Source: Alphaproteobacteria bacterium (GTDB lineage: Bacteria > Pseudomonadota > Alphaproteobacteria > MPNO01 > UBA830). Taken from it: a stretch of DNA of 64,000 nucleotides. The notes beneath the pieces were generated by a model. The model worked only from the letters and a program-made list of their open reading frames with translations. It did no database searches and was not told the DNA's origin. The stretch is taken from the NCBI GenBank assembly GCA_965243135.1, contig OZ251539.1, positions 1,888,001-1,952,000 on the forward strand, written 5' to 3'. The stretch's first letter is position 1; the number at the start of each line of letters is the position of its first letter. Of the stretch, positions 17,890-62,957 are shown piece by piece. The position numbers and the translations under genes are program-made.

Positions 17890-19419
17890 TCAGGCGGGCT
17901 CGCAATCGAAGCCGACGACGTTGCGCTCCTCGCGGCTGAACTCCACCCCGATCAGGTGGACCGAACGTCCGAGACGACGGTACTTGTCCGCATAGCCCTT
18001 CTCCCGCAACTGCGCGAGCGCGGTCCCCTCCCGCCCGCGCTCCACCACCTTGAACTCGAACAGGTAGACGCCGCCGCCGGCGCGGATCGCCATGTCGGCG
18101 CGCCCCCGGCTGCCGCTGTCCTCGGCCACCGGCTCGAAGCCCTCCATCAGGAAGCAGCTGTGGATGACGCTCGCGTAGTGGGCCTCGTACACCGGGCTGT
18201 TCATGTACCACTGGTGCGGGATGGCGGCGAAGACGCCGCGGAACAGGGTCCCGATGCGTTCGAAGTCGTTCGCCTCCAGCAGTTCGCCCAGCCGCAGGCG
18301 CCCCGTCTTTTTGCGGGCCTCGACCGGGAGCAGTTCTTCCAGCAAGGCCTCGCCCAGGCTCTGGCGCACCTCGAGGTTCGGGTAGTCCAGCCTGTAGCGC
18401 CCGTCCTCCTCGCCGACGATGGTGAGGTAGCCGGTCTGGAACAGAAGCGCCTCGACCGAGATATTGTCCACGTCGAAGGTCGAGAGCAGGCTCTCGCTGC
18501 CGATCATGCCGTCCAGGTCGGGAGTGGGCAGGTCGCGGCGCGCCAGCGTCTCGACCAGGAAGGTCGGCGTGCCGCTATGGAACCAGTAGTTGCCGAACTT
18601 GCGTTTGTCAAACAGCAGCAGGAGGCCGAACGGGTTGTAGACCCTCTCCGGTCCGAGCCAGTTGTAGCCGTTGTACCAGCGGCGGACCTCGTCCCGGTCC
18701 AGGCCCTCGAGTTCCGGGGCGAAGACCGCGTCCAGTTCCGCGTCCGTGCAACCGCAGATGGCGCCGTAGCGCTCGTCCAGCGTGATGTCGTTCAGGTTGT
18801 TCAGGCCCGAGAACAGGCCCGCCTTCGAGAATTTGCTCACTCCCGTCAGGAAAACGAAACGGAGATGCCTGTCGCAGGCCTTGATCACCCCGTACAGGCT
18901 GCGCAGGAAGTCGCGGTTGGCCCGCGCCAGTTCCCGGTCGCCGAGCGCGTCCAGGATCGGCTTGTCGTATTCGTCCACCAGAACCACCGCCCGCTGCCCG
19001 GTGCGTTCGTGCAGGTCCGCGATCAGTTCCCGGAAGCGGACCGAAACTCTGGCGCCGCCCGGCTCGATGCCGGCCCGCCTCTCCGCCGCCTTCAGTTGCG
19101 ATTCCGTTTCTTCCCGAACTCCGTCCGGGTCGCCGAAATCGCCCCCGCCGAAATCCAGCCGCACGACAGGATAACGTATCGACCAGTCCCACCTGCCGTG
19201 CACGGCGAGGCCCCGGAACAGCTCCTCGCTTCCCTCGAACAACTCCTGCAGCGTGTCCACCAGCAGGCTCTTGCCGAACCGGCGCGGACGCGACAGGAAA
19301 TAGTACTTGCCCCTTTCGACGAGGCGGCGCACATGGTCCGTCTTGTCGACGTAGTAGCAGTCCATCCCCCGGATCTCCCGGAGGGAGGAAAAGCCGATCG
19401 GAAGCATGCGTTGCGTCAT
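17890..19419 (-). CDS. AAA-ATPase-like + PD-(D/E)XK nuclease protein (copy 2, open frame)
   Basis: MTQRMLPIG...SRPRRFGKS...VDEYDKP...YNGY...YNPF...QTGYLTI...EAHY...GRADM...FEFK...ALAQLREKGY; 2-codon deletion (SPVYEAHY). Confidence 0.92.
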   Translation of the reverse strand: MTQRMLPIGFSSLREIRGMDCYYVDKTDHVRRLVERGKYYFLSRPRRFGKSLLVDTLQELFEGSEELFRGLAVHGRWDWSIRYPVVRLDFGGGDFGDPDGVREETESQLKAAERRAGIEPGGARVSVRFRELIADLHERTGQRAVVLVDEYDKPILDALGDRELARANRDFLRSLYGVIKACDRHLRFVFLTGVSKFSKAGLFSGLNNLNDITLDERYGAICGCTDAELDAVFAPELEGLDRDEVRRWYNGYNWLGPERVYNPFGLLLLFDKRKFGNYWFHSGTPTFLVETLARRDLPTPDLDGMIGSESLLSTFDVDNISVEALLFQTGYLTIVGEEDGRYRLDYPNLEVRQSLGEALLEELLPVEARKKTGRLRLGELLEANDFERIGTLFRGVFAAIPHQWYMNSPVYEAHYASVIHSCFLMEGFEPVAEDSGSRGRADMAIRAGGGVYLFEFKVVERGREGTALAQLREKGYADKYRRLGRSVHLIGVEFSREERNVVGFDCEPA

Positions 19420-19499
19420 TCGAAGAGGGTAGGCCGCCGCGCCGGAGCCGTCAAGAAGTCGGCGGCGGCAGGCCTGTCTGCGTCCCCTGGCGCGGCAAG

Positions 19500-19935
19500 C
19501 AGCCGGCAGTTTCCGCGGCGGCCCGGGCGGTACGGCGGGTTTTCCGGCGGCGGCCTGAAACGGAGGACGACCAACAAGGAGAGCGCCGCCGCGCCCAGAC
19601 AAGAAGTCCGCCGCGACGCCCGGAAGCGACACGACCGGAAGCTGTCGCCGCGCCCGAAACGGCGAGGTCGACCGCCAGTCCGCGCCTGCGAACGAAGTAG
19701 CGGGAAACCGCGGCCGTGACCAGCGGGCGGTCGGCGGGGGGTAGGCGTCGAGGCGCGCCGGCTTCACCCACCTGCTGCCCTTCCGTTCACGCGGCCTCCC
19801 CATTTCCGGCAGACGTAAACTCGTCGACGTCGAGTTCCTCCCGAAGCTCCCGGGGCCCGGCGTCCCTCCGCCGCCGGCCGCCGGGGAATTCCCCCGCTCC
19901 GCCCTCCGGCCGCCGCGACGGCGAAAACGACCGGC
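19500..19935 (-). pseudogene. Fused, microdeleted mutT-like (Nudix) and MFS remnants
   Basis: RRPEGGAGEFPGG...RELREELDVDE and WVKPARLDAYP (Nudix) followed by PLVTAAVSRYF (MFS). Confidence 0.7.
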
Positions 19936-20118: not shown

Positions 20119-21654
20119 TCAGGCGGGCTCGCAATCGAAGCCGACGACGTTGCGCTCCTCGCGGCTGAACTCCACCCCGATCAGGTGGACCGAACGTCCG
20201 AGACGACGGTACTTGTCCGCATAGCCCTTCTCCCGCAACTGCGCGAGCGCGGTCCCCTCCCGCCCGCGCTCCACCACCTTGAACTCGAACAGGTAGACGC
20301 CGCCGCCGGCGCGGATCGCCATGTCGGCGCGCCCCCGGCTGCCGCTGTCCTCGGCCACCGGCTCGAAGCCCTCCATCAGGAAGCAGCTGTGGATGACGCT
20401 CGCGTAGTGGGCCTCGTACTTCGCGACCGGGCTGTTCATGTACCACTGGTGCGGGATGGCGGCGAAGACGCCGCGGAACAGGGTCCCGATGCGTTCGAAG
20501 TCGTTCGCCTCCAGCAGTTCGCCCAGCCGCAGGCGCCCCGTCTTCTTGCGGGCCTCGACCGGGAGCAGTTCTTCCAGCAAGGCCTCGCCCAGGCTCTGGC
20601 GCACCTCGAGGTTCGGGTAGTCCAGCCTGTAGCGCCCGTCCTCCTCGCCGACGATGGTGAGGTAGCCGGTCTGGAACAGAAGCGCCTCGACCGAGATATT
20701 GTCCACGTCGAAGGTCGAGAGCAGGCTCTCGCTGCCGATCATGCCGTCCAGGTCGGGAGTGGGCAGGTCGCGGCGCGCCAGCGTCTCGACCAGGAAGGTC
20801 GGCGTGCCGCTATGGAACCAGTAGTTGCCGAACTTGCGTTTGTCGAACAGCAGCAGGAGGCCGAACGGGTTGTAGACCCTCTCCGGTCCGAGCCAGTTGT
20901 AGCCGTTGTACCAGCGGCGGACCTCGTCCCGGTCCAGGCCCTCGAGTTCCGTGGCGAAGACCGCGTCCAGTTCCGCGTCCGTGCAACCGCAGATGGCGCC
21001 GTAGCGCTCGTCCAGCGTGATGTCGTTCAGGTTGTTCAGGCCCGAGAACAGGCCCGCCTTCGAGAATTTGCTCACTCCCGTCAGGAAAACGAAACGGAGA
21101 TGCTCGTCGCAGTCCTTGATAACCCCGTACAGGCTGCGCAGGAAGTCCCGGTTGGCCCGCGCCAGCTCCCGGTCGCCGAGCGCGTCCAGGATCGGCTTGT
21201 CGTATTCGTCCACCAGAACCACCGCCCGCTGCCCGGTGCGTTCGTGCAGGTCCGCGATCAGTTCCCGGAAGCGGACCGAAACTCTGGCGCCGCCCGGCTC
21301 GATGCCGGCCCGCCTCTCCGCCGCCTTCAGTTGCGATTCCGTTTCTTCCCGAACTCCGTCCGGGTCGCCGAAATCGCCCCCGCCGAAGCTGATCCGCACG
21401 ACCGGATGGCGTATCGACCAGTCCCACTTGCCGTGCACGGCGAGGCCCCGGAACAGCTCCTCGCTTCCCTCGAACAGCCTCTGCAGCGTGTCCACCAGCA
21501 GGGTCTTGCCGAACCGGCGCGGACGCGACAGGAAATAGTAATCGCCCTCTTCGACGAGGCGGCGCACATGGTCCGTCTTGTCGACGTAGTAGCAGTTCCT
21601 CGTCCGGATTTTCCGGAGGGAGGTCATGCCGATCGGAAGCATGCGTTTCGCCAT
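20119..21654 (-). CDS. AAA-ATPase-like + PD-(D/E)XK nuclease protein (copy 3, intact, 511 aa)
   Basis: Same motifs; start MAKRMLPIGMTSLRKIRTRNC. Confidence 0.93.
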   Translation of the reverse strand: MAKRMLPIGMTSLRKIRTRNCYYVDKTDHVRRLVEEGDYYFLSRPRRFGKTLLVDTLQRLFEGSEELFRGLAVHGKWDWSIRHPVVRISFGGGDFGDPDGVREETESQLKAAERRAGIEPGGARVSVRFRELIADLHERTGQRAVVLVDEYDKPILDALGDRELARANRDFLRSLYGVIKDCDEHLRFVFLTGVSKFSKAGLFSGLNNLNDITLDERYGAICGCTDAELDAVFATELEGLDRDEVRRWYNGYNWLGPERVYNPFGLLLLFDKRKFGNYWFHSGTPTFLVETLARRDLPTPDLDGMIGSESLLSTFDVDNISVEALLFQTGYLTIVGEEDGRYRLDYPNLEVRQSLGEALLEELLPVEARKKTGRLRLGELLEANDFERIGTLFRGVFAAIPHQWYMNSPVAKYEAHYASVIHSCFLMEGFEPVAEDSGSRGRADMAIRAGGGVYLFEFKVVERGREGTALAQLREKGYADKYRRLGRSVHLIGVEFSREERNVVGFDCEPA

Positions 21655-21739: not shown

Positions 21740-22250
21740 TTCCGCTGCGGCGGCGGGCGTCGGCGGGTTTTCCGGCGGCGGCCTGAAACGGAGGACGACC
21801 AACAGGGAGAGCGCCGCCGCGCCCAGACAAGAAGTCCGCCAGCCGGCGACGCCCGGAAGCGACACGACCGGAAGCTGTCGCCGCGCCCGAAACGGCGAGG
21901 TCGACCGCCAGTCCGCGCCTGCGAACGAAGTAGCGGGAAACCGCGGCCGTGACCAGCGGCAGCGAGACGGCCGCCCGCCCGCCCACAAGTCCGAACGGAA
22001 GGTAGGCGGTTCCGCGGCGAAGGCGGTGCCGCCGGCAGCGAGGGCGCCCGCGGCGAACGGCGCCCCGCAGCGGTCCCTGCCCGCCACCGGAGACCCGACG
22101 GCCACCCAAGGAGGCGGCGGCCTGCGCTCCCGTCCACCCGAGTTCCGACTGCCAAGACGGGAGAACCATGCTCACGGACGACCGCGCGCCGAAAGTGAAG
22201 GCCAGCGCGGCGAAGCAGACGACGGCCGGCGCGCGTCTCGTCGGTCACCG
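21740..22250 (-). pseudogene. MFS transporter remnant
   Basis: SMVLPSWQSELGWTGAQ...AAVSLPLVTAAVSRYF, a deleted version of 31182-32303. Confidence 0.8.
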
Positions 22251-22439
22251 GAGTCGCGCTCCTGCGCCGCGTCGCCCGGCGAAACGCCGGAAATCCGCCC
22301 CGGCGCCGGCCGCGAAACGGCGCGCCGCCGAAAAGGGACGGCCGCAACTCCGGAAGAGCCGCGTCACCGCGCAGCATGGCGACCAGCACTTTGTTGGTTG
22401 CCTCAACCACGCCTGACGGCGTAGCCTCCGACCTTCAGG

Positions 22440-22670
22440 ATCGCGTAGCGCATGCGACGCCGGTCCTTCCGTTCACGCGGCCTCCCCATTTCCGGCAGAC
22501 GTAAAGCGGCCAGATGAAAATCGTCGGTGAGACGCGAAGGTGAACGGCGAAAGGCAGATCTCGTCGATGTCGAGTTCCTCCCGAAGCTCCCGGGCCCGGC
22601 GTCCCTCCGCCGCCGGCCGCCGGGGAATTCCCCCGCTCCGCCCTCCGGCCGCCGCGACGGCGAAAACGAC
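22440..22670 (-). pseudogene. mutT: mutT (8-oxo-dGTP diphosphatase) remnant
   Basis: Frameshifted pieces ELREELDIDEICLSPFTFASH and PLYVCRKWGG typical of alphaproteobacterial MutT. Confidence 0.7.
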
Positions 22671-22790
22671 CGGCTCTCCAGCCCTGCGGCGCGGAACCCG
22701 GAGACGCGCCCGGCCCGCGAAGCCTGCAGGGAGACGCCGCCGGCCCCGAAGCGGCGTTCTTTCGCGGAGGCGGCCGTGACGGGAAGCCGT

Positions 22791-24297
22791 TCAGGCGGGC
22801 TCGCAGCCGACGACGTTGCGCTCCTCGCGGCTGAACTCCACCAGGTGGACCGAACGTCCGAGACGGCGGTACTTGTCCGCGTAGCCCTTCTCCCGCAGTT
22901 GCGCGAGCGCGCCCCCCTCCCGTCCGCGCTCCACCACCTTGAACTCGAACAGGTAGACGCGCCCGCCGACGCGGATCGCCATGTCGGCGCGCCCCCGGCT
23001 GCCGCTGTCCTCGGCCACCGGCTCGAAGCCCTCCATCAGGAAGCAGCTGTGGATGACGCTCGCGTAGTGGGCCTCGTACACCGGGCTGTTCATGTACCAC
23101 TGGTGCGGGGCGAAGACGCCGCGGAACAGGGTTCCGATGCGTTCGAAGTCGTTCGCCTCCAGCAGTTCGCCCAGCCGCAGGCGCCCCGTTTTCTTGCGCG
23201 CCTCGACCGGGAGCAGTTCTCCCAGCAAGGCCTCGCCCAGGCTCTGGCGCACCTCGAGGTTCGGGTAGTCCAGCCGGTAGTGCCTGTCCTCCTCGCCGGC
23301 GATGGTGAGGTAGCCGGTCTGGAACAGAAGCGCCTCGACCGAGATATTGTCCACGTCGAAGGTCGAGAGCAGGCTCTCGCTGCCGATCATGCCGTCCAGG
23401 TCGGGAGTGGGCAGGTCGCGGCGCGCCAGCGTCTCGACCAGGAAGGTCGGCGTGCCGCTATGGAACCAGTAGTTGCCGAACTTGCGTTTGTCGAACAGCA
23501 GCAGGAGGCCGAACGGGTTGTAGACCCTCTCCGGTCCGAGCCAGTTGTAGCCGTTGTACCAGCGCCGGATTTCGTCCCGGTCCAGGCCCTCGAGTTCCGG
23601 GGCGAAGACCGCGTCCAGTTCCGCGTCCGTGCAGCCGCAGATGGCGCCGTAGCGCTCGTCCAGCGTGATGTCGTTCAGGTTGTTCAGGCCCGAGAACAGG
23701 CCCGCCTTCGAGAATTTGCTCACTCCCGTCAGGAAAACGAAACGGAGATGCTCGTCGCAGTCCTTGATAACCCCGTACAGGCTGCGCAGGAAGTCGCGGT
23801 TGGCCCGCGCCAGCTCCCGGTCGCCGAGCGCGTCCAGGATCGGCTTGTCGTATTCGTCCACCAGAACCACCGCCCGCTGCCCGGTGCGTTCGTGCAGGTC
23901 CGCGATCAGTTCCCGGAAGCGGACCGAAACTCTGGCGCCGCCCGGCGCCGGCCCGCCTCTCCGCCGCCCTCAGTTGCGATTCCGTTTCTTCCCGAACTCC
24001 GTCCGGGTCGCCGAAATCGCCCCCGCCGAAGCTGATCCGCACGACCGGATGGCGTATCGACCAGTCCCACCTGCCGTGCACGGCGAGGCCCCGGAACAAC
24101 TCCTCGCTTCCCTCGAACAGCTTCTGCAGCGTGTCCACCAGGAGGGTCTTGCCGAACCGGCGCGGACGCGACAGGAAATAGTACTTGCCCCTCTCGACGA
24201 GGCGGCGCACATGGTCCGTCTTGTCGACGTAGTAGCAGTTCATCCCCCGGATCTCCCGGAGGGAGGAAAAGCCGATCGGAAGCATGCGTTGCGTCAT
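22791..24297 (-). pseudogene. ATPase-nuclease copy 4, frameshifted
   Basis: 5-nt deletion (tcgat) near 23945 splits the frame; also several 6-nt deletions near the 3' end. Confidence 0.88.
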
Positions 24298-25021
24298 TCG
24301 AAGAGGGTAGGCCGCCGCGCCGGAGCCGTCAAGAAGTCGGCGGCGGCAGGCCTGTCCGCGTCCCCTGGCGCGGCAAGCAGCCGGCAGTTTCCGCTGCGGC
24401 ACGGCGGGGAAAAACGCGGGGACGAGCGAACCTGTCGCTCCGCGGAAATCCTGCCCCGCTGAGACGAGCGCGTTCGACGCGCGGCCTGGAGGCAGCGGGC
24501 GGAAGCGAACGCCGACGGCTGGCGCCGCCAGCAAAGGCGACGCGCGTCGACAACGATCTCGGCACCGGATTCGCGAACCTCGACGGCAAGGTCGACGCCC
24601 TCGCCGCGGAAACCAGGGCCGACGCAACGCGACGGCAAGCGCCCTCGCCAGGGAAAGCCGCGCGCCTCGAAACCACGACGATTGCCGCGGCAGGCCTCGC
24701 CGCCATACTTGCAGTTGGTCCGCCGCACCCGCGCGCGCGACGACATGCGAGTCCCGGCGGCTACATGCACAGGCATGGCAGCGCCGCACCCGCGCGCGCG
24801 ACGACATGCGCCGCAAGCGGCGAAACGCCTGAACGTCAGGCAACGGTTCCGTCGAACGAGAGCGTCGTCCGGTCGAGCGAGCGGACTTCCGCCGCCGAAA
24901 ACCATGGGCTCGTTCGAAACCGTCAACCGAAGCGGCTCGCGAAACCGGAAACGGTGACGGCAGGCGTTGGCCTCCGTTTTTGAACTCCTGACCTCTCCGC
25001 AACATCAAAACGGTCGGTCAG

Positions 25022-25193
25022 CAGCAATTCCCGCTAAGGCGGCCGCATGTCCGGAAGGTGCGCCGAGAAGGCGAAATCACCAAGGGACAAGCCGCCGCGA
25101 CAAATCCCTCAGGCAAATCGCACTACCCGGAAAAATCTACGAAAAATTTTTCTGAAACCCCATATTTTCCAAGGGCCATAGCGGGAATTGCCG
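25022..25193. mobile_element. 172-bp MITE with 15-bp terminal inverted repeats and 9-bp target duplication
   Basis: CAGCAATTCCCGCTA...TAGCGGGAATTGCCG flanked by GTCGGTCAG at 25013-25021 and 25194-25202. Confidence 0.85.
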
Positions 25194-25560
25194 GTCGGTC
25201 AGCCACCATGCGCGTTGCGCTTCAAACTTGAAGGGGCGCTCCTCGACGTCGAGTTCCTCCCTGAGCTCCCGGGCCCGGCGTCTCTCCACCGCCGGCCATC
25301 GGGGAATTCCTTGCCCTGCGGCCGCAGCCACGACGAGAACGACCGGCTCTCCAGCCCTGCGGCGCGGAACCCGGAGACGCGCCCGACCCGCGAAGCCTGC
25401 CGGCGCGCGAGCGCCTGCAGGGAGACGCCGCCGGCCCCGAGGCGGCCTCCTCGGCCGGGCGGCCCGTCAAGCCGTGCGACGAACCGGCGGAACCGGCTGC
25501 CGCCGCGGGCCGAACCCGCGTCGGCGTTCTTTCGCGGAGGCGGTCGTGACGGGAAGCCGT

Positions 25561-26059
25561 TCAGGCGGGCTCGCAGCCGACGACGTTGCGCTCCTCGCGG
25601 CTGAACTCCACCAGGTGGACCGAACGTCCGAGACGGCGGTACTTGTCCGCGTAGCCCTTCTCCCGCAGTTGCGCGAGCGCGCCCCCCTTCCGTCCGCGCT
25701 CCACCACCTTGAACTCGAACAGGTAGACGCGCCCGCCGGCGCGGACCGCCATGTCGGCGCGCCCCCGGCTGCCGCTGTCCTCGGCCACCGGCTCAAGGCC
25801 CTCCAAGCAGCTGGACGCTCGCGTAGTGGGCCTCGTACACCGGGCTGTTCATGTACCACTGGTGCGCGGCGAAGACGCCGCGGAAACAGGGTGCGTTCGA
25901 AGTCGTTCGCCGCCAGCAGTTCGCCCAGCCGCAGGCACCCCGTCTTCTTGCGAGCCTCGACCGGGAGCAGTTCTTCCAGCAAGGCCTCGCCCAGGCTCCG
26001 GCGCACCTCGAGGTTCGGGTAGTCCAGCCTGTAGCGTCCGTCCTCCTCGCCGGGGATGG
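25561..26059 (-). pseudogene. ATPase-nuclease copy 5, decayed 3' fragment downstream of a group II intron
   Basis: EEDGRYRLDYPNLEV...GRADMAVRAGGRVYLFEFK with multiple frameshifting deletions. Confidence 0.85.
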
Positions 26060-26734
26060 GTAGAGTCGAGGACTGGCGCGTTAGCTTTAGGGTCCGGGTT
26101 CCGTCGCTTTCGCTCCGGGCCTCAGTCCGGCTCCCGTGGCCATGTTTCCAGTCCCCGCTCTCCGAACCGGACGTGCGGATTTCCCGCGCCTCCAGCCCTC
26201 GCCCACGGATGAATTGGTAGCGTTCCCAGAACGGCCGGTCTTCCGGACCCGGGAGTTGCACCGTCTCCCATTTCCGTCTGTTTTCCGCTGTCCAACCCGT
26301 CGCCGAGCCTGTTTACGCCTCGGCAACCCCAGCCTCTCGACCGGGTTCCTTCGCTTGTAACGCTTCCGGGATCTCTGACATGTAGTCGGTTGTTAGGCAT
26401 AGCCCCTTCTCCCTTGCGGCCCCTTTCCTCCGCCGGCGTTACCCGGCTTCTCCGGTACTACGGGCCTCTCCGCCACCCGCCGGCCTGCCCCTCGCGAGGT
26501 TCCGGTTGACTCGTGCGCGTCACCGACAGGGTTTCCCGTGTTGCTGCTTCCTTCATTTTCCATGCGTGCCGACCCCCGGCGGAAACGGTCGGTGCTCTTG
26601 TCGTTCTCTTCCCGACCGTCGGCGGCTTTCCCCTAACCTCAGGAGGGTCAGCTCCCGCATTGACCGTTTCGAGGCCTGGTTCACTGCTCGTTTCGGCCCG
26701 CATGTTCGCTGAGCGGCTTTCGCCGCCCTTTCCC
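26060..26734 (-). mobile_element. ORF-less group II intron, 5'-truncated
   Basis: 3' end CTCGACTCTAC, domain V-like GGGAAATCCGCACGTCCGGTTCGGAGAGCGGGG; homologous to 46092-46958; 5' side fused to an argJ fragment. Confidence 0.8.
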
Positions 26735-27520
26735 GCGGAATTGCCGCAAGCGCGGATCCGAGGCGTCGACGACCGGGTCGTGCCCGGCCGCGCCGGTCGC
26801 GAACAGCAGAACCGCGTCGCTGGTCGAGGTGTCTCCGTCGACGGTGATCGAATTGAAGGACTTGTCGGCGCTCCGGGACAGAAGCCGCCGGAGCGCGGCG
26901 GCGCCGACCGCCGCGTCCGTGAAGACGAAGGCCAGCATCGTCGCCATGTCGGGCGCGATCATGCCGGATCCCTTGGCGATGCCGCAGACGACGACTTCGG
27001 CGTCTCCGACGCGCGTCTTTCTCCACGACCCCTTCGGAAAGGTGTCGGTGGTCATGATGGCCTCCGCGGCCTCTTTCCAGCCATGCGGGGCCAGGGAGTT
27101 CCGCAGGCTTTCCAGCGAGTTCCGGATGCGCTCGTCGGGAAGGGTCTCGCCGATCACGCCGGTCGAGGCGACGAACACGTGGGATCCGGAGCACGACAGC
27201 ACGTCCGCCGCTTTCTCGACGGTGCGTTCGACCGACTTGCGGCCCTCGAGTCCGGTGAAGGCGTTGGCGTTTTCGGCGTTCACGATCAGCGCCCGGGCCT
27301 CGCCGGCTTCGAGCGCCTGCCGGCACCAGTCGACCGGCGCGGCCGCCGTCCGGGATTTGGTCAACACGCCGGCCGCCCTGGTTCCGGGCGCGAGCGACGC
27401 GAGAAACACGTCCAGCCGTCCGGCGTAACGCAAGCCGCAACAGGCGGCCGCGAGCGAAACGCCCGGGACGGGAGGCATGTCCGGAAAGCCGCCGGGGGCG
27501 AGCGGCGAGATCTTCTTCAT
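26735..27520 (-). pseudogene. argJ: ArgJ (glutamate N-acetyltransferase), 3'-truncated
   Basis: SPLAP...AAPVDWCR...NANAFTG...ASTGVIGE...AIMTTDTFPK...GIAKGSGMIAPDMATML...SFNSITVDGDTSTSD. Confidence 0.9.
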
Positions 27521-27683
27521 GCGCCTGTCGATTCTCTCGAGCGGCCCGTAACGGCCGTATCGTTTATGCGCACCGAAACGAGGCTACTGCAACCTCCGCA
27601 AAAACAAGTCATTCCGTCCGGGCCGTCGCGGCGGGCCGGCTTCGCGGGGGCTACCGCAACCTCCGCAAAAACAAGTCATTCAG

Positions 27684-51529: not shown

Positions 51530-51699
51530 CGGAAGAGAGTAGGCCGCCGCGCCGGAGCCGTCAAGAAGTCGGCGGCGGCCAGCCTGTCCGGGTCCCCTGG
51601 CGCGGCAACCCGTTCGTCGCCGACAGCGCCCCGCAGAAGCGGCAGCGCTCCGCCCGCCGCAAGCGAAAGGCGTCGCCCGACCTGGAAGTCGCCTGCGGA

Positions 51700-54497: not shown

Positions 54498-54598
54498 CGG
54501 AAGAGAGTAGGCCGCCGCGCCGGAGCCGTCAAGAAGTCGGCGGCGGGGGTGAGCAGGCCATGAGCGTTTGGTACCGGACATATCGTCTGTTACTGACA

Positions 54599-54963
54599 GC
54601 CCTGAAGGCAACCCCAGATGCCGAGGACCTCAAGAACCGGACGGCCGTCTTCAGCGCGCCGCCGCCATCGTCATCGGCTGGCGGATTCGGACCCGTCTCG
54701 GACGGGAACTGCCCGACTTGCCGCCCGAGATCCTGTTCTCGGACGTCGAACTCCGGGTGCTGGCGCTGTTCGCCAAATCTTGCGGCGCCGCCGAAAAACC
54801 TCGGAGACGCCGTCTTCCTGGTCGCCCGCCTCGGAGGGTATTTCAAGCGCAAGCGGGACCCGCCAGGCGCGGAAGTGATGTGGAACGGCTACGCCCAACC
54901 CGCCGCCAAGGCGCATTTCCGGGAACTTGAGGACGATAGTTCAGCAAAATGGGGCACAGGCAG
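54599..54963 (+). mobile_element. IS4-family (IS50/Tn5-like) transposase 3' remnant
   Basis: RLQRAAAIVIGWRI..LGRELPDLPPEILFSDVELRVL, LGDAVFLVARLGGYFKRKRDPPGAEVMWNGY. Confidence 0.8.
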
Positions 54964-55648
54964 CGCTCGGCTTCGCACGCGCGCCGACAAGGCTGTCGCC
55001 GGGCTGCAGCAGCCTGTGCGCCGGCCCGGCCACGCAGGTTCGCGGCGCGGGACAGGACAAACAGCGGTCGTCGGCCCGGCCACGGGGCAGAGGGGGATTT
55101 TTTCGCTGCGGCGGGGCGTTCGCCGCAGGGAGGGCGTAGCCCGACCGGAGGCGAACGCCCCGCCGCCCCGGCACCTCGACTCACCGGCCAACCCATCCCC
55201 ATACTGCCTTGGCGACAGGGATTGCCGACCGCCGGTATTGCGCTTCGGAGTTGATAGCGGGCCTATTTTCCAAGGGCCATAGCGGGAATTGCCGGTCGGT
55301 CAGCCACCATGCGCGTTGCGCTTCAAACTTGAAGGGGCGCTCCTCGGCGTCGAGTTCCTCCCTGAGCTCCCGGGCCCGGCGTCTCTCCGCCGCCGGCCGT
55401 CGGGGAATTCCTTGCCCTGCGGCCGCCGCGACGACGAGAACGACCGGCTCTCCAGCCCTGCGGCGCGGAACCCGGAGACGCGCCCGACCCGCGAAGCCTG
55501 CCGGCGCGCGAGCGCCTGCAAGGAGACGCCGTCGGCCACGGCCTCCTCGCCGGGCGGCCCGTCAAGCCGCGCGACGAACCGGCGGAACCGGCTGCCGCCG
55601 CAGGCCGAGCGGCGTTCTTTCGCGGAGGCGGCCGTGACGGGAAGCCGT

Positions 55649-57184
55649 TCAGGCGGCCTCGCAATCGAACCCGACGACGTTGCGCTCCGCCCGGCTGAAC
55701 TCCACCCCGATCAGGTGGACCGAACGCCCGAGACGGCGGTACTTGTCCGCATATCCCTTCTCCCGCAGTTGCGCGAGCGCGACCCCCTCCCGTCCGCGCT
55801 CCACCACCTTGAACTCGAACAGGTAGACGCGGTCGCCGGCGCGGATCGCCATGTCGGCGCGCCCCCGGCTGCCGCTGTCCTCCGCGACCGGCTCGAGGCC
55901 CTCCATCAGGAAGCAGCTGTGGATGACGCTCGCGTAGTGGGCCTCGTACTTCGCGACCGGGCTGCTCGCGTACCACTGGTGCGGGATGGCGGCGAAAATG
56001 CCGCGGAACAGGGTTTCGAGACGCTTGAAGTCGTTAGCCGCCAGCAATTCGCCCAGCCGCAGGTTCTCCGTCTCCTCGCGGGCCTCGGCCGGGAGCAGTT
56101 CTTCCAGCAGGGCCTCGCCCAGGCTTTGGCGCACCTCGAGGTTCGGGTAGTCCAGCCGGTAGCGCCTGCCCTCTTCGCCGACGATGGTGAGGTAGCCGGT
56201 CTGGAACAGAAGCGCCTCGACCGAAACCCTGTCCACGTCGAAGGTCGAGAGCAGGCTCTCGCTGCCGATCATGCCGTCCAGGCGGGGAGTGGGCAGGTTG
56301 CGGCGCGCCAGCGTCTCGACCAGGAAGGTCGGCGTGCCGCTCTCGAACCAGTACGGGCGGAACTCGCGCCGCCGAAACAGCAGCAGCAGGCCGAACGGAT
56401 TGTAGACCCTCTCCGGCCCGCGCCAGTTGTAGCCGTTGTACCAGCGGCGGACCTCGTCCCGGTCCAGGCCCTCGAGTTCCGGGGCGAAGACCGCGTCCAG
56501 TTCCGCGTCCGTGCAACCGCAGATGTCCGAGAACTCCGGCTCCAGCGTGACGTCGATCAGGTTGTTCAGGCCCGAGAACAGGCCCGCCTTCGAGAATTTG
56601 CTCACCCCCGTCAGGAAAACGAAACGGAGATGCCTGTCGCAGGCCTTGATCACCCCGTACAGGCTGCGCAGGAAGTCGCGGTTGGCCCGCGCCAGTTCCC
56701 GGTCGCCGAGCGCGTCCAGGATCGGCTTGTCGTACTCGTCCACCAGAACCACCGCCCGCTGCCCGGTGCGCTCGTGCAGGTCCGCGATCAGTTCCCGGAA
56801 GCGGACCGAAACTCTGGCGCTCCCCAGCTCGATGCCGGCCCGCCTCTCCGCCGCCTTCAGTTGCGATTCCGTTTCTTCCCGAACTCCGTCCGGGTCGCCG
56901 AAATCGCCCCCGCCGAAATCCAGCCGCACGACAGGATGACGTATCGACCAGTCCCACCTGCCGTGCACGGCGAGGCCCCGGAACAGCTCCTCGCTTCCCT
57001 CGAACAACTCCTGCAGCGTGTCCACCAGCAGGCTCTTGCCGAACCGGCGCGGACGCGACAGGAAATAGTACTTGCCTCTCTCGACGAGGCGGCGCGCATG
57101 GTCCGTCTTGTCGACGTAGTAGCAGTCCATCCCCCGGATCTCCCGGAGGGAAGAAAAGCCGATCGGAAGCATGCGTTTCGTCAT
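55649..57184 (-). CDS. AAA-ATPase-like + PD-(D/E)XK nuclease protein (copy 13, intact)
   Basis: Start MTKRMLPIGFSS at 57184 behind the conserved promoter. Confidence 0.92.
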   Translation of the reverse strand: MTKRMLPIGFSSLREIRGMDCYYVDKTDHARRLVERGKYYFLSRPRRFGKSLLVDTLQELFEGSEELFRGLAVHGRWDWSIRHPVVRLDFGGGDFGDPDGVREETESQLKAAERRAGIELGSARVSVRFRELIADLHERTGQRAVVLVDEYDKPILDALGDRELARANRDFLRSLYGVIKACDRHLRFVFLTGVSKFSKAGLFSGLNNLIDVTLEPEFSDICGCTDAELDAVFAPELEGLDRDEVRRWYNGYNWRGPERVYNPFGLLLLFRRREFRPYWFESGTPTFLVETLARRNLPTPRLDGMIGSESLLSTFDVDRVSVEALLFQTGYLTIVGEEGRRYRLDYPNLEVRQSLGEALLEELLPAEAREETENLRLGELLAANDFKRLETLFRGIFAAIPHQWYASSPVAKYEAHYASVIHSCFLMEGLEPVAEDSGSRGRADMAIRAGDRVYLFEFKVVERGREGVALAQLREKGYADKYRRLGRSVHLIGVEFSRAERNVVGFDCEAA

Positions 57185-57452
57185 CCGAAGAGAGTAGGCC
57201 GCCGCGCCGGAGCCGTCAAGAAGTCGGCGGCGGCAGGCCTGTCTGCGTCCCCTGGCGCGGCAAGTAGCCGGCAGTTTCCGCGGCGGCCCGGGCGGGCGGC
57301 GGGGAAAAGCGCGGAGGCGAGCGAACCTGTCGCTCCGCGGAAGCTCCGCTGAGGCGAGCGCGTTCGACGCGCTCAACGCACGGCCTGGAGGCCGCGGGCG
57401 GAAGCGAGCGCTGCCGCCGGGCAGCGCAAGGTTGGCGGACTTGCGGCGGCGA

Positions 57453-58325
57453 CTCAAGCCGCCGCCACGGCGCGCCTTTCCGGCACCAGCAGGGCAAAAA
57501 CTCCGGCGACCGCGGCAAGCGCGACCCACCACAGTCCGTCTCGCGGTCGAAGATCCCCCAGCAAGACCCCGGTCGCCGCGTCCAGGGAATGGCCGCCGAA
57601 CAGCAGCCCGAGCGTGAGGCCCGCAAGCCGCGTCGCGACGATGTTGGCGATCACCGGGAAGGTGGCGAAGTTGAGAACCCCGAAGAGGGCCGCGAAGAGG
57701 AACAGGACGACGCCGGCGAGATTGCCCGTGAACCCCGTAGGCACCCTCGACGAGGGTGAAGCCCCAGGTCAGGGCGTAGGGAATGAAGTACACGTCGATT
57801 ATCCCGGCCGTCGTGAAGCCGCACAGCGCGAAGGCGGCGAGCAGCAGCGGAAAGGTCCGTTCCCGGAACAGGGATTTCAGGCGGTCGGGCAGGGAACCGT
57901 CGTCGGCCGCGGCGGCAGGCGTCGGCGGGTTGCGGCGGCCTGAAATGAAGGAGGACCAGCAGGGAGAGCGCCGCCGCGCCCAGGCAGGAAGTCCGCCAGC
58001 CGAGCGACGCGACGCCCGGAAGCGACAGGACCGGAAGCTGTCGCCGCGCCGGAAACGGCGACGCCAGTCCGCGCCTGCGCGCGAAGTAGCGGGAAACCGC
58101 GGCCGTGACCAGCGGCAGCGAAACGGCCGCCCGCCCGCCCACGAGCCCGAACGGAAGGTAGGCGGTTCCGCGGCGAAGACGGTGCCGCCGGCAGCGAGGG
58201 CGCCCGCCTGCGCTCCCGTCCACCTGCCGGGAGAACCATGCTCACGGACGACCGCGCGCCGAAAGTAAAGGCCAGCGCGACGAAGCAGGTTGCGACGACG
58301 GCCGGCGCGCGTCTCGCCGGTCACC
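57453..58325 (-). pseudogene. MFS transporter remnant
   Basis: FALCGFTTAGIIDVYFIPYALT, GVLNFATFPVIANIV in broken frames. Confidence 0.8.
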
Positions 58326-58545
58326 GGAGTCGCGCGCCGAGCCGCCCGGCGCGGAACCCGGAGACGCGCCCGAGCCGCGAAGCCTGCCGGCGCGCGAGCG
58401 CCTGCAGGGAACCGTCGTCGGCCGCGGCGGCCTCCTCGGCCGGGCGGCCCGTCCAGCCGCGCGACGAACCGGCGGAACCGGCTGCCGTCGCGGGCCGAAC
58501 CGCGGGCTGCGTTCTTTCGCGGAGGCGGCCGTGACGGGAAGCCGT

Positions 58546-60081
58546 TCAGGCGGGCTCGCAATCGAAGCCGACGACGTTGCGCTCCTCGCGGCTGAACTCC
58601 ACCCCGATCAGGTGGACCGAACGCCCGAGACGGCGGTACTTGTCCGCATAGCCCTTCTCCCGCAGCTGCGCGAGCGCGGTCCCCTCCCGTCCGCGCTCCA
58701 CCACCTTGAACTCGAACAGGTAGACGCCGCCGCCGGCGCGGATCGCCATGTCGGCGCGCCCCCGGCTGCCGCTGTCCTCGGCCACCGGCTCGAAGCCCTC
58801 CATCAGGAAGCAGCTGTGGATGACGCTCGCGTAGTGGGCCTCGTACTTCGCGACGGGGCTGTTCATGTACCACTGGTGCGGGATGGCGGCGAAGACGCCG
58901 CGGAACAGGGTCTCGACGCGCTTGAAGTCGTTCGCCGCCAGCAATTCGCCCAGCCGCAGGTTCTCCGTCTCCTCGCGGGCCTCGTCCGGGAGCAGTTCTT
59001 CCAGCAAGGCCTCGCCCAGGCTCCGGCGCACCTCGAGGTTCGGGTAGTCCAGCCGGTAGCGCCCGTCCTCCTCGCCGGCGATGGTGAGGTAGCCGGTCTG
59101 GAACAGAAGCGCCTGGACCGACATCCTGTCCACGTCGAAGGTCGAGAGCAGGCTCTCGCTGCCGATCATGCCGTCCAGGCGGGGAGTGGGCAGGTTGCGG
59201 CGCGCCAGCGTCTCGATCAGGAAGGTCGGCGTGCCGCTCTCGAACCAGTAGTTGCCGAACCTGCGCTCGGCGAACAGCAGCAGGAGGCCGAACGGGTTGT
59301 AGAGCTTCTCCGGCCCGCGCCAGTTGTAGCCGTTGTACCAGCGGCGGATCTCGTCCCGGTCCAGGCCCTCGAGTTCCGGGGCGAAGACCGCGTCCAGCTC
59401 CGCGTCCGTGCAGCCGCAGATGTCCGAGAACTCCGGCGCCAGCGTGATGTCGCGCAGGTTGTTCAGGCCCGAGAACAGGCCCGCCTTCGAGAATTTGCTC
59501 ACTCCCGTCAGGAAAACGAAACGGAGATGCCTGTCGCACTCCTTGATCACCCCGTACAGGCTGCGCAGGAAGTCCCGGTTGGCCCGCGCCAGCTCCCGGT
59601 CGCCGAGCGCGTCCAGGATCGGCTTGTCGTATTCGTCCACCAGAACCACCGCCCGCTGCCCGGTGCGTTCGTGCAGGTCCGCGATCAGTTCCCGGAAGCG
59701 GACCGAAACTCTGGCGCCGCCCGGCTCGATGCCGGCCCGCCTCTCCGTCGCCTTCAGTTGCGATTCCGTTTCTTCCCGAACTCCGTCCGGGTCGCCGAAA
59801 TCGCCCCCGCCGAAGCCGATCCGCACGACCGGATAGCGCGTCGACCAGTCCCACTTGCCGTGCACGGCGAGGCCCCGGAACAACTCCTCGCTTCCCTCGA
59901 ACAACTCCTGCAGCGTGTCCACCAGCAGGGTCTTGCCGAACCGGCGCGGACGCGACAGGAAATAGTACTTGCCTCTCTCGACGAGGCGGCGCGCATGGTC
60001 CGTCTTGTCGACGTAGTAGCAGTCCATCCCCCGGATCTCCCGGAGGGAAGAAAAGCCGATCGGAAGCATGCGTTTCGCCAT
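58546..60081 (-). CDS. AAA-ATPase-like + PD-(D/E)XK nuclease protein (copy 14, intact)
   Basis: All motifs present. Confidence 0.93.
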   Translation of the reverse strand: MAKRMLPIGFSSLREIRGMDCYYVDKTDHARRLVERGKYYFLSRPRRFGKTLLVDTLQELFEGSEELFRGLAVHGKWDWSTRYPVVRIGFGGGDFGDPDGVREETESQLKATERRAGIEPGGARVSVRFRELIADLHERTGQRAVVLVDEYDKPILDALGDRELARANRDFLRSLYGVIKECDRHLRFVFLTGVSKFSKAGLFSGLNNLRDITLAPEFSDICGCTDAELDAVFAPELEGLDRDEIRRWYNGYNWRGPEKLYNPFGLLLLFAERRFGNYWFESGTPTFLIETLARRNLPTPRLDGMIGSESLLSTFDVDRMSVQALLFQTGYLTIAGEEDGRYRLDYPNLEVRRSLGEALLEELLPDEAREETENLRLGELLAANDFKRVETLFRGVFAAIPHQWYMNSPVAKYEAHYASVIHSCFLMEGFEPVAEDSGSRGRADMAIRAGGGVYLFEFKVVERGREGTALAQLREKGYADKYRRLGRSVHLIGVEFSREERNVVGFDCEPA

Positions 60082-60349
60082 CGGAAGAGAGTAGGCCGCC
60101 GCGCCGGAGCCGTCAAGAAGTCGGCGGCGGCAGGCCTGTCCGCGTCCCCTGGCGCGGCAAGCAGCCGACAGTTTCCGCCGCGGCCCGGGCGGGCGGCGGG
60201 GAAAAGCGCGGAGGCGAGCGAACCTGTCGCTCCGCGGAAGCTCCGCTGAGGCGAGCGCGTTCGACGCGCTCAACGCACGGCCTGGAGGCCGCGGGCGGAA
60301 GCGAGCGCTGCCGCCGGGCAGCGCAAGGTTGGCGGACTTGCTGCGGCGA

Positions 60350-61265
60350 CTCAAGCCGCCGCCACGGCGCGCCTTTCCGGCACCAGCAGGGCAAAAACTC
60401 CGGCGACCGCGGCAAGCGCGACCCACCACAGTCCGTCTCGCGGTCGAAGATCCCCCAGCAAGACCCCGGTCGCCGCGCCCAGGGAATGGCCGCCGAACAG
60501 CAGCCCGAGGCCCCGCAAGCCGCGTCGCGACGATGTTGGCGATCACCGGGAAGGTGGCGAAGTTGAGAACCCCGAAGAGGGCCGCGGAGAGGAACAGGAC
60601 GACGCCGGCGAGATTGCCCGTGAACCCCGTAGGCACCCTCGACGAGGGTGAAGCCCCAGGTCAGGGCGTAGGGAATGAAGTACACGTCGATTATCCCGGC
60701 CGTCGTGAAGCCGCACAGCGCGAAGGCGGCGAGCAGCAGCGGAAAGGTCCGTTCCCGGAACAGGGATTTCAGGCGGTCGGGCAGGGAACCGTCGTCGGCC
60801 GCGGCGGCAGGCGTCGGCGGGTTGCGGCGGCCTGAAATGAAGGAGGACCAGCAGGGAGAGCGCCGCCGCGCCCAGGCAGGAAGTCCGCCAGCCGAGCGAC
60901 GCGACGCCCGGAAGCGACAGGACCGGAAGCTGTCGCCGCGCCGGAAACGGCGACGCCAGTCCGCGCCTGCGCGCGAAGTAGCGGGAAACCGCGGCCGTGA
61001 CCAGCGGCAGCGAAACGGCCGCCCGCCCGCCCACGAGCCCGAACGGAAGGTAGGCGGTTCCGCGGCGAAGGCGGTGCCGCCGGCAGCGAGGGCGCCCGCG
61101 GCGAGCTGCGCTCCGTAGCGGTCCCTGCCCGCCGCCGGCGACCCGACGGCCACCCAGGGAGGCGCCCGCCTGCCTCCCGTCCACCTGCCGGGAGAACCAT
61201 GCTCACGGACGACCGCGCGCCGAAAGTAAAGGCCAGCGCGACGAAGCAGGTTGCGACGACGGCCG
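60350..61265 (-). pseudogene. MFS transporter remnant (near-duplicate of 57453-58325)
   Basis: VVATCFVALAFTFGARSSVSMVLP and downstream pieces. Confidence 0.8.
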
Positions 61266-61421
61266 GCGCGCGAGCGCCTGCAGGGAACCGTCGTCGGCCG
61301 CGGCGGCCTCCTCGGCCGGGCGGCCCGTCCAGCCGCGCGACGAACCGGCGGAACCGGCTGCCGTCGCGGGCCGAACCGCGGGCTGCGTTCTTTCGCGGAG
61401 GCGGCCGTGACGGGAAGCCGT

Positions 61422-62957
61422 TCAGGCGGGCTCGCAATCGAAGCCGACGACGTTGCGCTCCTCGCGGCTGAACTCCACCCCGATCAGGTGGACCGAACGC
61501 CCGAGACGGCGGTACTTGTCCGCATAGCCCTTCTCCCGCAGCTGCGCGAGCGCGGTCCCCTCCCGTCCGCGCTCCACCACCTTGAACTCGAACAGGTAGA
61601 CGCCGCCGCCGGCGCGGATCGCCATGTCGGCGCGCCCCCGGCTGCCGCTGTCCTCGGCCACCGGCTCGAAGCCCTCCATCAGGAAGCAGCTGTGGATGAC
61701 GCTCGCGTAGTGGGCCTCGTACTTCGCGACGGGGCTGTTCATGTACCACTGGTGCGGGATGGCGGCGAAGACGCCGCGGAACAGGGTCTCGACGCGCTTG
61801 AAGTCGTTCGCCGCCAGCAATTCGCCCAGCCGCAGGTTCTCCGTCTCCTCGCGGGCCTCGGCCGGAAGCAGTTCTTCCAGCAAGGCCTCGCCCAGGCTCT
61901 GGCGCACCTCGAGGTTCGGGTAGTCCAGCCGGTAGCGCCCGTCCTCCTCGCCGGCGATGGTGAGGTAGCCGGTCTGGAACAGAAGCGCCTGGACCGACAT
62001 CCTGTCCACGTCGAAGGTCGAGAGCAGGCTCTCGCTGCCGATCATGCCGTCCAGGCGGGGAGTGGGCAGGTTGCGGCGCGCCAGCGTCTCGATCAGGAAG
62101 GTCGGCGTGCCGCTCTCGAACCAGTAGTTGCCGAACCTGCGCTCGGCGAACAGCAGCAGGAGGCCGAACGGGTTGTAGAGCCTCTCCGGCCCGCGCCAGT
62201 TGTAGCCGTTGTACCAGCGCCGGATCTCGTCCCGGTCCAGGCCCTCGAGTTCCGGGGCGAAGACCGCGTCCAGTTCCGCGTCCGTGCAGCCGCAGATGTC
62301 CGAGAACTCCGGCACAAGCGTGATGTCGCGCAGGTTGTTCAGGCCCGAGAACAGGCCCGCCTTCGAGAATTTGCTCACCCCCGTCAGAAAAACGAAACGG
62401 AGCTGCTCGTCGCAGTCCTTGATCACCCCGTACAGGTCGCGCAGGAAGCCGCGGTTGGCCAGCGCCAGTTCCCGGTCGCCGAGCGCGTCCAGGATCGGCT
62501 TGTCGTATTCGTCCACCAGCACGACCGCCCGCTGCCCGGTGCGCTCGTGCAGTTCGGAGATCAGATGGTGAAGGCGGTCGGAGGCGTCCGGGTAGCCGCA
62601 TTGGACGCCGGCGCGCTTTTCGGCGGCGTCGAGCTGCATCATCGCGTTCCTGTGCAGCCGGTCGGGGACGACGAAATTGCGCCCGCCGAAGCTGAGTCGC
62701 ACGACCGGATGGCGCATCGACCAGTCCCACCTGCCGTGCACGGCGAGGCCCCGGAACAGCTCCTCGCTTCCCTCGAACAGCTTCTGCAGCGTGTCCACGA
62801 GGAGGGTCTTGCCGAACCGGCGCGGACGCGACAGGAAATAGTACTTGCCCCCTTCGACGAGGCGGCGCACATGGTCCGTCTTGTCGACGTAGTAGCAGTT
62901 CATCCCCCGGATCTCCCGGAGGGAGGAAAAGCCGATCGGAAGCATGCGTTTCGTCAT
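61422..62957 (-). CDS. AAA-ATPase-like + PD-(D/E)XK nuclease protein (copy 15, intact, unique variable block)
   Basis: All motifs; block GGRNFVVPDRLHRNAMMQLDAAEKRAGVQCGYPDASDRLHHLISEL. Confidence 0.93.
   Translation of the reverse strand: MTKRMLPIGFSSLREIRGMNCYYVDKTDHVRRLVEGGKYYFLSRPRRFGKTLLVDTLQKLFEGSEELFRGLAVHGRWDWSMRHPVVRLSFGGRNFVVPDRLHRNAMMQLDAAEKRAGVQCGYPDASDRLHHLISELHERTGQRAVVLVDEYDKPILDALGDRELALANRGFLRDLYGVIKDCDEQLRFVFLTGVSKFSKAGLFSGLNNLRDITLVPEFSDICGCTDAELDAVFAPELEGLDRDEIRRWYNGYNWRGPERLYNPFGLLLLFAERRFGNYWFESGTPTFLIETLARRNLPTPRLDGMIGSESLLSTFDVDRMSVQALLFQTGYLTIAGEEDGRYRLDYPNLEVRQSLGEALLEELLPAEAREETENLRLGELLAANDFKRVETLFRGVFAAIPHQWYMNSPVAKYEAHYASVIHSCFLMEGFEPVAEDSGSRGRADMAIRAGGGVYLFEFKVVERGREGTALAQLREKGYADKYRRLGRSVHLIGVEFSREERNVVGFDCEPA

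Follow-up and report, generated by a model that had tools for sequence, protein, structure and literature searches.

A family of about 100 mosaic ATPase-nuclease genes, probably shaped by ectopic homologous recombination, in one alphaproteobacterial genome

The window analyzed here is a stretch of 64,000 nucleotides (nt; positions 1,888,001–1,952,000) from the one-contig, 6.1-Mb genome of an alphaproteobacterium (assembly GCA_965243135.1, contig OZ251539.1; 68% G+C), and it harbors 16 copies of one gene, all of them on the minus strand (24 high-scoring segment pairs, HSPs, in a tblastn search with one full copy). The encoded protein is 511 amino acids (aa) long and combines an ATPase domain (PF09820, AAA-ATPase_like; 203 bits with a cut-off of 26.1, residues 7–203) with a nuclease domain located C-terminal to it (PF08011, PDDEXK_9; 58.6 bits with a cut-off of 25.5, residues 412–504). 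A second copy run against Pfam gave the same two-domain outcome, with no further Pfam domains. Copy 12 was used as the reference for all searches as well as for the structure model. The copies are listed below together with their N-terminal allele (FSS, MTS, or LTS) and their allele at a variable block (A or B).

3–605, minus strand: copy 1, N-terminal part, cut by the left window end; intact in the genome
17890–19419, minus strand: copy 2, intact, FSS + A
20119–21654, minus strand: copy 3, intact, MTS + A (motifs at 21621/21375)
22791–24297, minus strand: copy 4, frameshift near aa 117–120 (two HSPs in different frames)
25561–26084, minus strand: copy 5, limited to the region 3' of the intron site (aa ~325–511), in several frames
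28212–29750, minus strand: copy 6, intact, LTS + A, QRREFRPY
32919–34425, minus strand: copy 7, frameshift near residue 117–120; duplicate of copy 4
35689–36212, minus strand: copy 8, 3' fragment; duplicate of copy 5
40717–42252, minus strand: copy 9, intact, MTS + B (motifs at 42219/41973)
45570–46091, minus strand: copy 10 exon 2, frameshift after ~aa 378
46959–47949, minus strand: copy 10 exon 1, FSS + B
49991–51529, minus strand: copy 11, intact, LTS + A
52962–54497, minus strand: copy 12, intact, FSS + B
55649–57184, minus strand: copy 13, intact, FSS + A; 3' half nearly identical to copy 12
58546–60081, minus strand: copy 14, intact, FSS + A
61422–62957, minus strand: copy 15, intact, third allele at the A/B block
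63166–64000, minus strand: copy 16, C-terminal part, cut by the right window end; intact in the genome

Nine copies (2, 3, 6, 9, 11, 12, 13, 14, and 15) are both intact and wholly inside the window. The family reaches further than an earlier note on this DNA had placed it, with copy 1 at 3–605 and copy 16 at 63166–64000; the former represents a more distant subfamily (~65% aa identity to copy 12). Genome-wide, the tblastn search returned 242 HSPs, 97 of which are full-length, uninterrupted copies, and after merging the family occupies 217,213 bp, which amounts to 3.56% of the genome; within the window, its share is 32%. According to their protein identity to copy 12, the 97 copies fall into a group of 50 (81–100%), a group of 45 (60–74%), and two outlying copies (44%), while the nucleotide identity among copies is 89–97.5%. 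The intact copies are distributed over 53 clusters, 32 of which consist of a single copy, and the largest cluster is the one found in the window.

Each variable block is represented genome-wide by a few major alleles; at the LIDVTLEPEFSD block, for instance, four major alleles account for 62 of the 97 copies. The earlier note had described the copies as combinatorial mosaics of such alleles, and all the peptides that it quoted were found on the minus strand, in the copies and combinations it named. All four combinations of N-terminal and A/B alleles exist, MTS occurring with A in copy 3 and with B in copy 9, FSS with A in copies 2, 13, and 14 and with B in copies 10 and 12. Copies 12 and 13 have LIDVTLEPEFSD, RRREFRPY, YASSP, and GDRV in common and differ at A/B, and copy 16 joins QRREFRPY (like copy 6) to DLPTPDL/VEARKK (like copies 2 and 3).

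Recombination was assessed on a codon-based alignment of 10 window copies (the nine intact ones and copy 16, completed from the genome), which had 1521 gap-free columns with 292 variable and 200 informative sites; when the latter are printed, the reassorting blocks are directly apparent. The pairwise homoplasy index (PHI) was 0.239, compared to 0.577 ± 0.009 under site permutation (z = −37; none of 2000 permutations as low), 56% of the pairs of informative sites were incompatible, and the minimum number of recombination events according to Hudson and Kaplan (Rmin) was 43. As a control, 20 recombination-free data sets, simulated along the tree of these copies under gamma-distributed rates, gave z values from −1.28 to +2.05. 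At the scale of the genome, PHI reached z = −34.5 in the 50-copy group and z = −53.3 in the 45-copy group. Linkage disequilibrium (LD) in the 50-copy group decayed from an r2 of 0.28 at < 10 nt to 0.02 at > 400 nt, and the fraction of site pairs with all four gametes rose with distance from 0.40 to 0.92. A separate one-contig genome of the same genus (G004), with 18 intact copies that are ~57% identical to the window family, yielded z = −52.8. PHI, Rmin, the LD decay, and the tree-only simulations strongly support the view of the earlier note that the mosaics arose through recombination or gene conversion.

Along every window copy, the nearest paralog switches repeatedly (120-nt sliding windows), often with 0–2 differences per 120 nt to copies that lie megabases off or to members of the other subfamily. 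Under a copying model, each window copy consists of 5–9 segments (62 in total, median 171 nt) with ~1% mismatch or less, and following the mosaic path reduced the mismatches per copy from 98.9 to 36.3, compared to a reduction from 116–125 to 92–98 in three simulations. Synonymous and non-synonymous differences travel jointly in blocks. Copies 14 and 15 are identical over their final 436 nt, and copies 2 and 3 over their final 297 nt, therefore some of the exchanges are recent. The copies are true mosaics, in which stretches of tens to hundreds of nt match various paralogs, near and megabases away, with ~1% divergence or less. We consider it probable that this family of ~100 members has been shaped by ectopic homologous recombination and that no dedicated diversifier is needed.

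Each unit of the family is a self-contained cassette made up of a promoter-like element, a 1.53-kb open reading frame (ORF), and a shared 3' flank; the unit common to the copies is short, extending ~45 nt 5' of the ORF and at least 40 nt 3' of it. The element consists of TTGACG at −35 to −30 and TAC(T/C)CT at −12 to −7 (numbered from the A of the ATG), and the pattern TTGAnn + TAnnnT was present at those positions in 85 of the 97 copies. In copy 12 it was located by conservation and spacing:

54504–54532, minus strand: promoter-like element of copy 12 (TTGACG at 54532–54527, TACTCT at 54509–54504)

None of the 97 copies has a ribosome-binding word (GGAG-, GAGG-, or AGGA-type) at −15 to −4. This arrangement suggests that each copy may be transcribed from its own promoter into a leaderless mRNA, which would also be the reason why many public gene calls begin at Met19 (493 aa). 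Since 97 ORFs are full-length and 85 of them are preceded by their own element, there are no silent cassettes.

Growth of the array by larger steps is visible in a segmental duplication of ~5 kb, absent from the earlier note, which holds copies 4/7 and 5/8:

21742–26731, no strand assigned: segmental duplication, first copy (copies 4/5), partner 31793–36866
31793–36866, no strand assigned: segmental duplication, second copy (copies 7/8), partner 21742–26731

The two stretches agree at 97.1% over 5081 columns and include 1266 nt at 99.92%. Further duplications link copies 6 and 11 (27337–29799 and 49102–51578, ~2.5 kb, 97.0%) as well as copies 11 and 14 (49792–51608 and 58347–60160, ~1.8 kb, 97.5%). 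Such multi-kb duplications that include the flanks are a signature of unequal crossing-over or segmental duplication. The spacers between copies are likewise repeated and mosaic; they contain two partial ArgJ genes (26681–27520 and 48095–49285, both minus strand, covering profile positions 3–230 and 81–356, respectively) and several MFS transporter pieces (31182–32303, minus; 38169–39389, plus; 44131–46038, minus), an arrangement suggesting that neighboring genes were disrupted and copied as the array expanded.

Solitary copies are situated mostly amid housekeeping genes, with about nine of the 107 ORFs flanking 33 solitary loci being of defense or mobile type (DruA, an Eco57I-type methylase, rve, Transposase_31, AAA_14/DUF4143, AAA_22 twice, HTH_32, and an Xre-type antitoxin). 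A frameshifted copy is situated between rpoN, which encodes sigma-54, and hpf (locus 3647345–3655875), where the interval between matched points measures 2075 nt, versus 229 nt in G003, a genome of the same genus without a copy at this site; the cassette was therefore inserted or lost as a unit. A motif shared by the flanks at this site proved to be an intergenic repeat, ...GACAAAAAATGGCGCAGCGCAAACGCCTC..., that is found throughout the genome, copy 1 and many subfamily-II copies being among the genes that it precedes; its 13-nt core has 67 matches, and only 11 of them are upstream of intact copies. The repeat is probably a repetitive extragenic palindromic (REP)-like or terminator-like element of the genome.

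Other genes of the window include a ThsB-like Toll/interleukin-1 receptor (TIR)-domain gene (42386–42829, plus strand; PF08937, E 6e−7) just upstream of copy 9 and, adjoining it, a gene for an 8xMP octameric membrane protein (42833–43339, plus strand; PF24838, E 2e−29), which may form a small defense-type pair. To the left of the array (1–17700) are metabolic genes (luciferase-like and FAD-binding monooxygenases, a class-III aminotransferase, hydantoinase A/B, an AMP-binding enzyme, a nitroreductase, and a zinc alcohol dehydrogenase), accompanied by a MerR regulator and a VWA protein.

Three of the copies are associated with a group II intron, which, as regards copy 10, is absent from the earlier note (RF02003; gathering cut-off of 49 bits):

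26085–26734, minus strand: group II intron remnant (3' part), abutting copy 5
36213–36980, minus strand: group II intron copy, abutting copy 8 (RF02003 at 36821–36955, 65.8 bits)
46092–46958, minus strand: ORF-less group II intron, 867 nt, in sense with copy 10 (RF02003 at 46793–46932, 75.1 bits)

The ends of the copy 10 intron (5' GTGCG, 3' CTAC) fit the GUGYG and AY consensus, and its exons join in frame (LLFQTGYL-T-IAGEEDGRY); copy 10 is dead all the same, due to the frameshift after ~residue 378. At least five further family copies, whose exon sequences differ, carry the same intron at the same codon (after LLFQTGYL), and the intron is also present at sites outside the family. No ORF for an intron-encoded reverse transcriptase (RT)/maturase exists in the 867-nt copy, while intron versions of ~1.9 kb with broken RT/maturase frames are present at ~1.990, 4.048, and 4.811 Mb. 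Either the intron homes into the family or it spreads with the family through conversion; it is not an explanation for the mosaics. The statement of the earlier note that no recombinase or RT is visible in the window holds for the ORFs (30 scanned, no RVT_1) and has to be amended for the ORF-less group II intron copies.

At the protein level, the Walker residues K50 and D149 are present in all 97 copies and E150 in 95, and all three are invariant in 117 diverse homologues, too; within the PD-(D/E)XK motif, D444 is kept in 91, E457 in 97, and K459 in 95 of the 97 copies. The ratio of non-synonymous to synonymous polymorphism (pN/pS) in the 50-copy group is 0.47 overall, 0.01–0.15 at the Walker A/B motifs and the nuclease core, and 0.7–1.8 in the variable blocks. 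Selection preserves the catalytic residues of both ATPase and nuclease in nearly all copies, and discrete alleles persist in a few patches, chiefly at residues ~94–140.

The AlphaFold2 model of copy 12, built with an alignment of 117 diverse homologues, has a predicted local distance difference test score (pLDDT) of 93.5 and a predicted TM-score (pTM) of 0.91, and supersedes a previous one from 38 close relatives (pLDDT 57). Residues 4–357 of the model match the archaeal AAA+ ATPases 2fna and 2qen (Z 15.5 and 15.3, with 276–280 residues aligned), the nucleotide-binding modules of plant nucleotide-binding leucine-rich repeat (NLR) proteins (Z 13.0 and 12.7), ORC2 (11.0), CED-4 (10.9), Avs3 (10.9), BrxC (10.6), and TnsC (10.2), while residues 346–508 match the PD-(D/E)XK nuclease domains of CinB and CidB (Z 9.6 and 9.1, respectively). 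Foldseek agrees with these matches, and a sequence search of the PDB gave none. The model thus depicts a nucleotide switch resembling those of the origin recognition complex (ORC) and of signal transduction ATPases with numerous domains (STAND), with a winged-helix module and a fused nuclease; because the Z values to archaeal AAA+ ATPases and ORC2 are as good or better, the STAND and ORC/Cdc6-like clades are inseparable by fold alone. No C-terminal repeat sensor (leucine-rich, tetratricopeptide, or WD40 repeats) was found in the Pfam scan or the model, the protein closing at residue 511 with the nuclease domain, and there is no room for a signal peptide, as position 1 of the ATPase profile aligns to residue 7.

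The most variable stretch, which comprises the A/B block and the sequence after it (residues ~94–140), is modeled as two helices (98–115 and 125–140) between the strand at 85–89 and the Walker B strand at 144–149, and would accordingly be a helix-loop-helix insertion that separates strand 2 from the Walker B strand. In Orc1/Cdc6, the helical insert in this position is the 'initiator-specific motif', which touches DNA and to which the insert of the window family may correspond.

Among the window's genome and 30 relatives, PF09820 occurs in five of the 31 genomes, namely the window's genome (71 scored of 198 candidates), G004 (23), G002 (9, all fragments), G003 (1), and G030, a member of the same order (9). 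Overall, the family comprises 17,345 cluster representatives (E ≤ 0.001). A pattern scan that covered one genome for each species, and that was built on peptide words of the query and hence favors close relatives, retrieved 456 relatives. The best 79 loci (53–64% identical) are in metagenome-assembled genomes (MAGs) of at least 10 differently named phyla or classes, their titles including Gammaproteobacteria, Pseudomonadales, Binatia, Latescibacterota, Vicinamibacterales, Gemmatimonadota, Poribacteria, Acidimicrobiales, Alphaproteobacteria, Spirochaetia, and others, and many of these genomes hold several loci; horizontal spread and parallel expansion in one habitat type may be involved. A run labeled as sponge metagenome holds near-identical sequence, therefore a host-associated habitat is likely; a literature search (titles and abstract openings) returned nothing on the family in sponge-associated bacteria. 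The idea of a phage-borne family was dropped, as the matches in a phage collection (28 of 50,697 records, unannotated metagenomic, 30–40% identity) were too weak.

If ectopic homologous recombination is the agent, the general homologous recombination of the host would act repeatedly on ~100 repeats of 1.5 kb, with non-reciprocal gene conversion shuffling short tracts among paralogs, while unequal crossing-over and multi-kb segmental duplication would build the tandem arrays and drag fragments of flanking genes along; no special diversifying enzyme would be required, and none was seen. Several observations weigh against this account. The effect of proximity is small (91.6% identity at < 5 kb vs. 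90.4% at > 1 Mb; Mantel r = −0.17, p = 0.0005, for distance vs. similarity) and below what simple ectopic-conversion models predict. The number of segments per copy (6–8) is no different from that in tree-only simulations (8), which makes the segment count uninformative, as only the gain in fit differs. The earlier note had placed the breakpoints at conserved motifs, which the data do not support: at 733 inferred switch points, donor-donor identity runs had a mean of 17 nt (median 12), shorter than the 24 nt at uniform junctions, although this test is crude because later mutation blurs old events. Switch density per 30 nt showed no correlation with diversity (r = −0.02). The mechanism does not account for the arrival of single copies at no fewer than 32 solitary sites, and no target-site duplication or terminal repeats were seen by eye at the one insertion inspected (rpoN-hpf). 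The public runs listed with matching sequence (20 from seven studies, none of them RNA) consist of short Logan contigs; in the four runs that were aligned, the listed pieces inside repeats are 63–254 nt long and none spans a copy, so that the phase of the blocks rests on the assembly. With respect to expression, a simple sigma-70 scan of 49900–63100 called no promoter-like sites, and the promoter reading is for this reason drawn from conservation and spacing only. As to function, copy 12 had no match at E ≤ 0.01 among the families of PADLOC-DB 2.0 (RdrA model included) and none in NCBIfam; the protein may, very tentatively, be an NTP-switched nuclease engaged in genetic conflict, either defensive or selfish.

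A different emphasis would see in the family an NLR-like innate-immune repertoire of ATP-switched nucleases that recognize their targets via the insert at ~94–140 and a few other patches, which we regard as doubtful. Selection would then favor conversion among ~100 expressed paralogs because it continually yields novel sets of recognition alleles, and breaks introduced by the nuclease of the family itself might stimulate it; many phyla of host-associated (sponge-metagenome) bacteria would have arrived at this solution in parallel. NLR and STAND gene arrays evolve by duplication, unequal crossing-over, and gene conversion, which produce mosaic alleles, and the module of ATPase, helical, and winged-helix parts in the window family, to which a nuclease effector is fused, matches plant NLRs, CED-4, and Avs3 in the structure comparison; however, its proteins are only 511 aa long, lack a repeat-type sensor, and have no PADLOC match. 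'Repertoire' was also the word chosen in the earlier note, and it implies a function that nothing in the analysis demonstrates.

The shared blocks could also stem from other cells, with family copies of different strains or species entering the genome through homologous recombination. In favor of this, copies at 53–64% aa identity occur in MAGs of many phyla, relatives are found on 66 of 72,556 plasmids, metagenome contigs in ENA carry copies at 76–85% identity, and the rpoN-hpf copy is missing from that site in G003. Yet 95 copies of the window's genome form one clade (support 1.0) that excludes 78 copies from other species and those of G004, and every segment of the window copies has a donor at ~1% mismatch or less within the genome, which renders import an unlikely origin of the mosaics. 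Although a protein tree of recombining sequences is a rough guide only, its clade points to expansion within the lineage, concerted evolution, or both, while import from other cells may add alleles.

Programmed diversification, whether through a diversity-generating retroelement, through silent donor cassettes that serve one expression site, or through a recombinase that shuffles blocks site-specifically, would account for discrete block alleles such as the four major ones at the LIDVTLEPEFSD block and for the presence of a retroelement RNA (the group II intron) inside family copies. However, the genome has only six RVT_1 matches, all partial and mostly coinciding with intron copies; none lies in the window, where a scan of 30 ORFs revealed no recombinase either. 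At the 44 sites that distinguish allele A from allele B, all four bases are affected (in the A allele, G 16, A 15, C 8, and T 5), so that there is no adenine specificity. Switch points occur all along the gene, and the wealth of full-length copies (97, with 85 having their own −35/−10-like element) is not what silent donors would look like. A programmed system is, on these grounds, very unlikely.

That the mosaics are artefacts, in which assembly or polishing merged near-identical paralogs or co-existing strains into a chimeric consensus, is a natural concern for ~100 copies at 89–97.5% nucleotide identity, which are a hard assembly case, the more so as the runs with matching sequence include metagenomes and the public-run contigs are too short to phase blocks. 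Against it, 97 copies retain frames of ~511 codons along with their catalytic residues, which chimerism with indel-bearing paralogs would often break, the blocks co-vary at synonymous and non-synonymous sites, and G004, assembled independently into one contig and with copies only ~57% identical, displays the same signal. In public runs from four studies, 92–97% of the contig pieces agree at ≥ 99% (1419 of 1462, 477 of 508, 384 of 412, and 457 of 497 pieces per run), and recombination within the family has been published for another phylum (PMC6387759). We therefore hold an artefact to be highly improbable. Parallel substitution without recombination, selected for a few favored motifs, might be suggested by the pN/pS near or above 1 in the variable blocks, but is scarcely credible, because convergence predicts neither distance-clustered incompatibility (PHI) nor LD decay, the blocks hold many linked synonymous differences, and simulations with rate heterogeneity produced no PHI signal.

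That multigene families evolve as mosaics through gene conversion is textbook knowledge, and the present family was defined in 2007. Antigenic-variation systems such as pilE/pilS, vlsE, and msp2 comprise one expressed locus and promoterless partial donors and encode surface antigens. The window family resembles them in the segmental conversion among paralogous cassettes that leads to combinatorial mosaics, and differs in that its copies are complete, mostly have their own promoter-like element, and encode what is predicted to be a cytoplasmic enzyme. The tuf genes, rRNA operons, and PE/PPE genes undergo concerted evolution through RecA-dependent gene conversion; general recombination between dispersed repeats and a genome-specific clustering of copies are common to both cases, whereas the window family is not homogenized, its alleles persist and reassort, and its copy number is far higher.

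The closest published parallel found is the DUF1703 family (PF09820 + PF08011) of Cardinium hertigii cCpun, reported to have 25 paralogs with a mean aa identity of 39% (Siozios et al. 2019, PMC6387759). According to the same account, these paralogs recombine (RDP4, PHI, neighbour-net), their products are predicted to be secreted, and large DUF1703 expansions are scattered over prokaryotes, with 9.8% of species having ≥ 10 copies (PMC6387759). As far as that account goes, both families have the same two-domain architecture, a lineage-specific expansion, and recombining paralogs, whereas the window's genome has 97 intact copies at 60–100% identity that are near linkage equilibrium beyond 400 nt, and its proteins leave no room for a signal peptide. 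PF09820 is also listed for RdrA, PARIS, and Old-tin (PMC10952713); the likeness to RdrA of RADAR consists in the same Pfam ATPase family being reported for an anti-phage ATPase (PMC10952713), and the difference in the window family being without an RdrB-like partner and having a fused nuclease as effector. The family itself, its large but patchy expansions, and the recombination of its paralogs are hence already in print (PMC6387759). With regard to the literature found, new are the scale and the near-equilibrium shuffling, the ORC/STAND-like fold, the variable block as a helical insert, the putative leaderless cassette with its own promoter, the intron homing site, and the occurrence in MAGs of multiple phyla.

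With 97 copies and 3.6% of the DNA, this is among the largest documentable expansions of a single enzyme gene in one bacterial genome, and its copies act as a freely recombining population of alleles within one chromosome. If the assembled phases hold, the family would offer a natural system in which the rates and tract lengths of ectopic conversion in bacteria can be studied. The combination of an ATPase switch and a nuclease with variation in a few surface-type patches makes a role in defense or in self/non-self discrimination testable, and the parallel multiplication in unrelated phyla suggests a strong common selective pressure.

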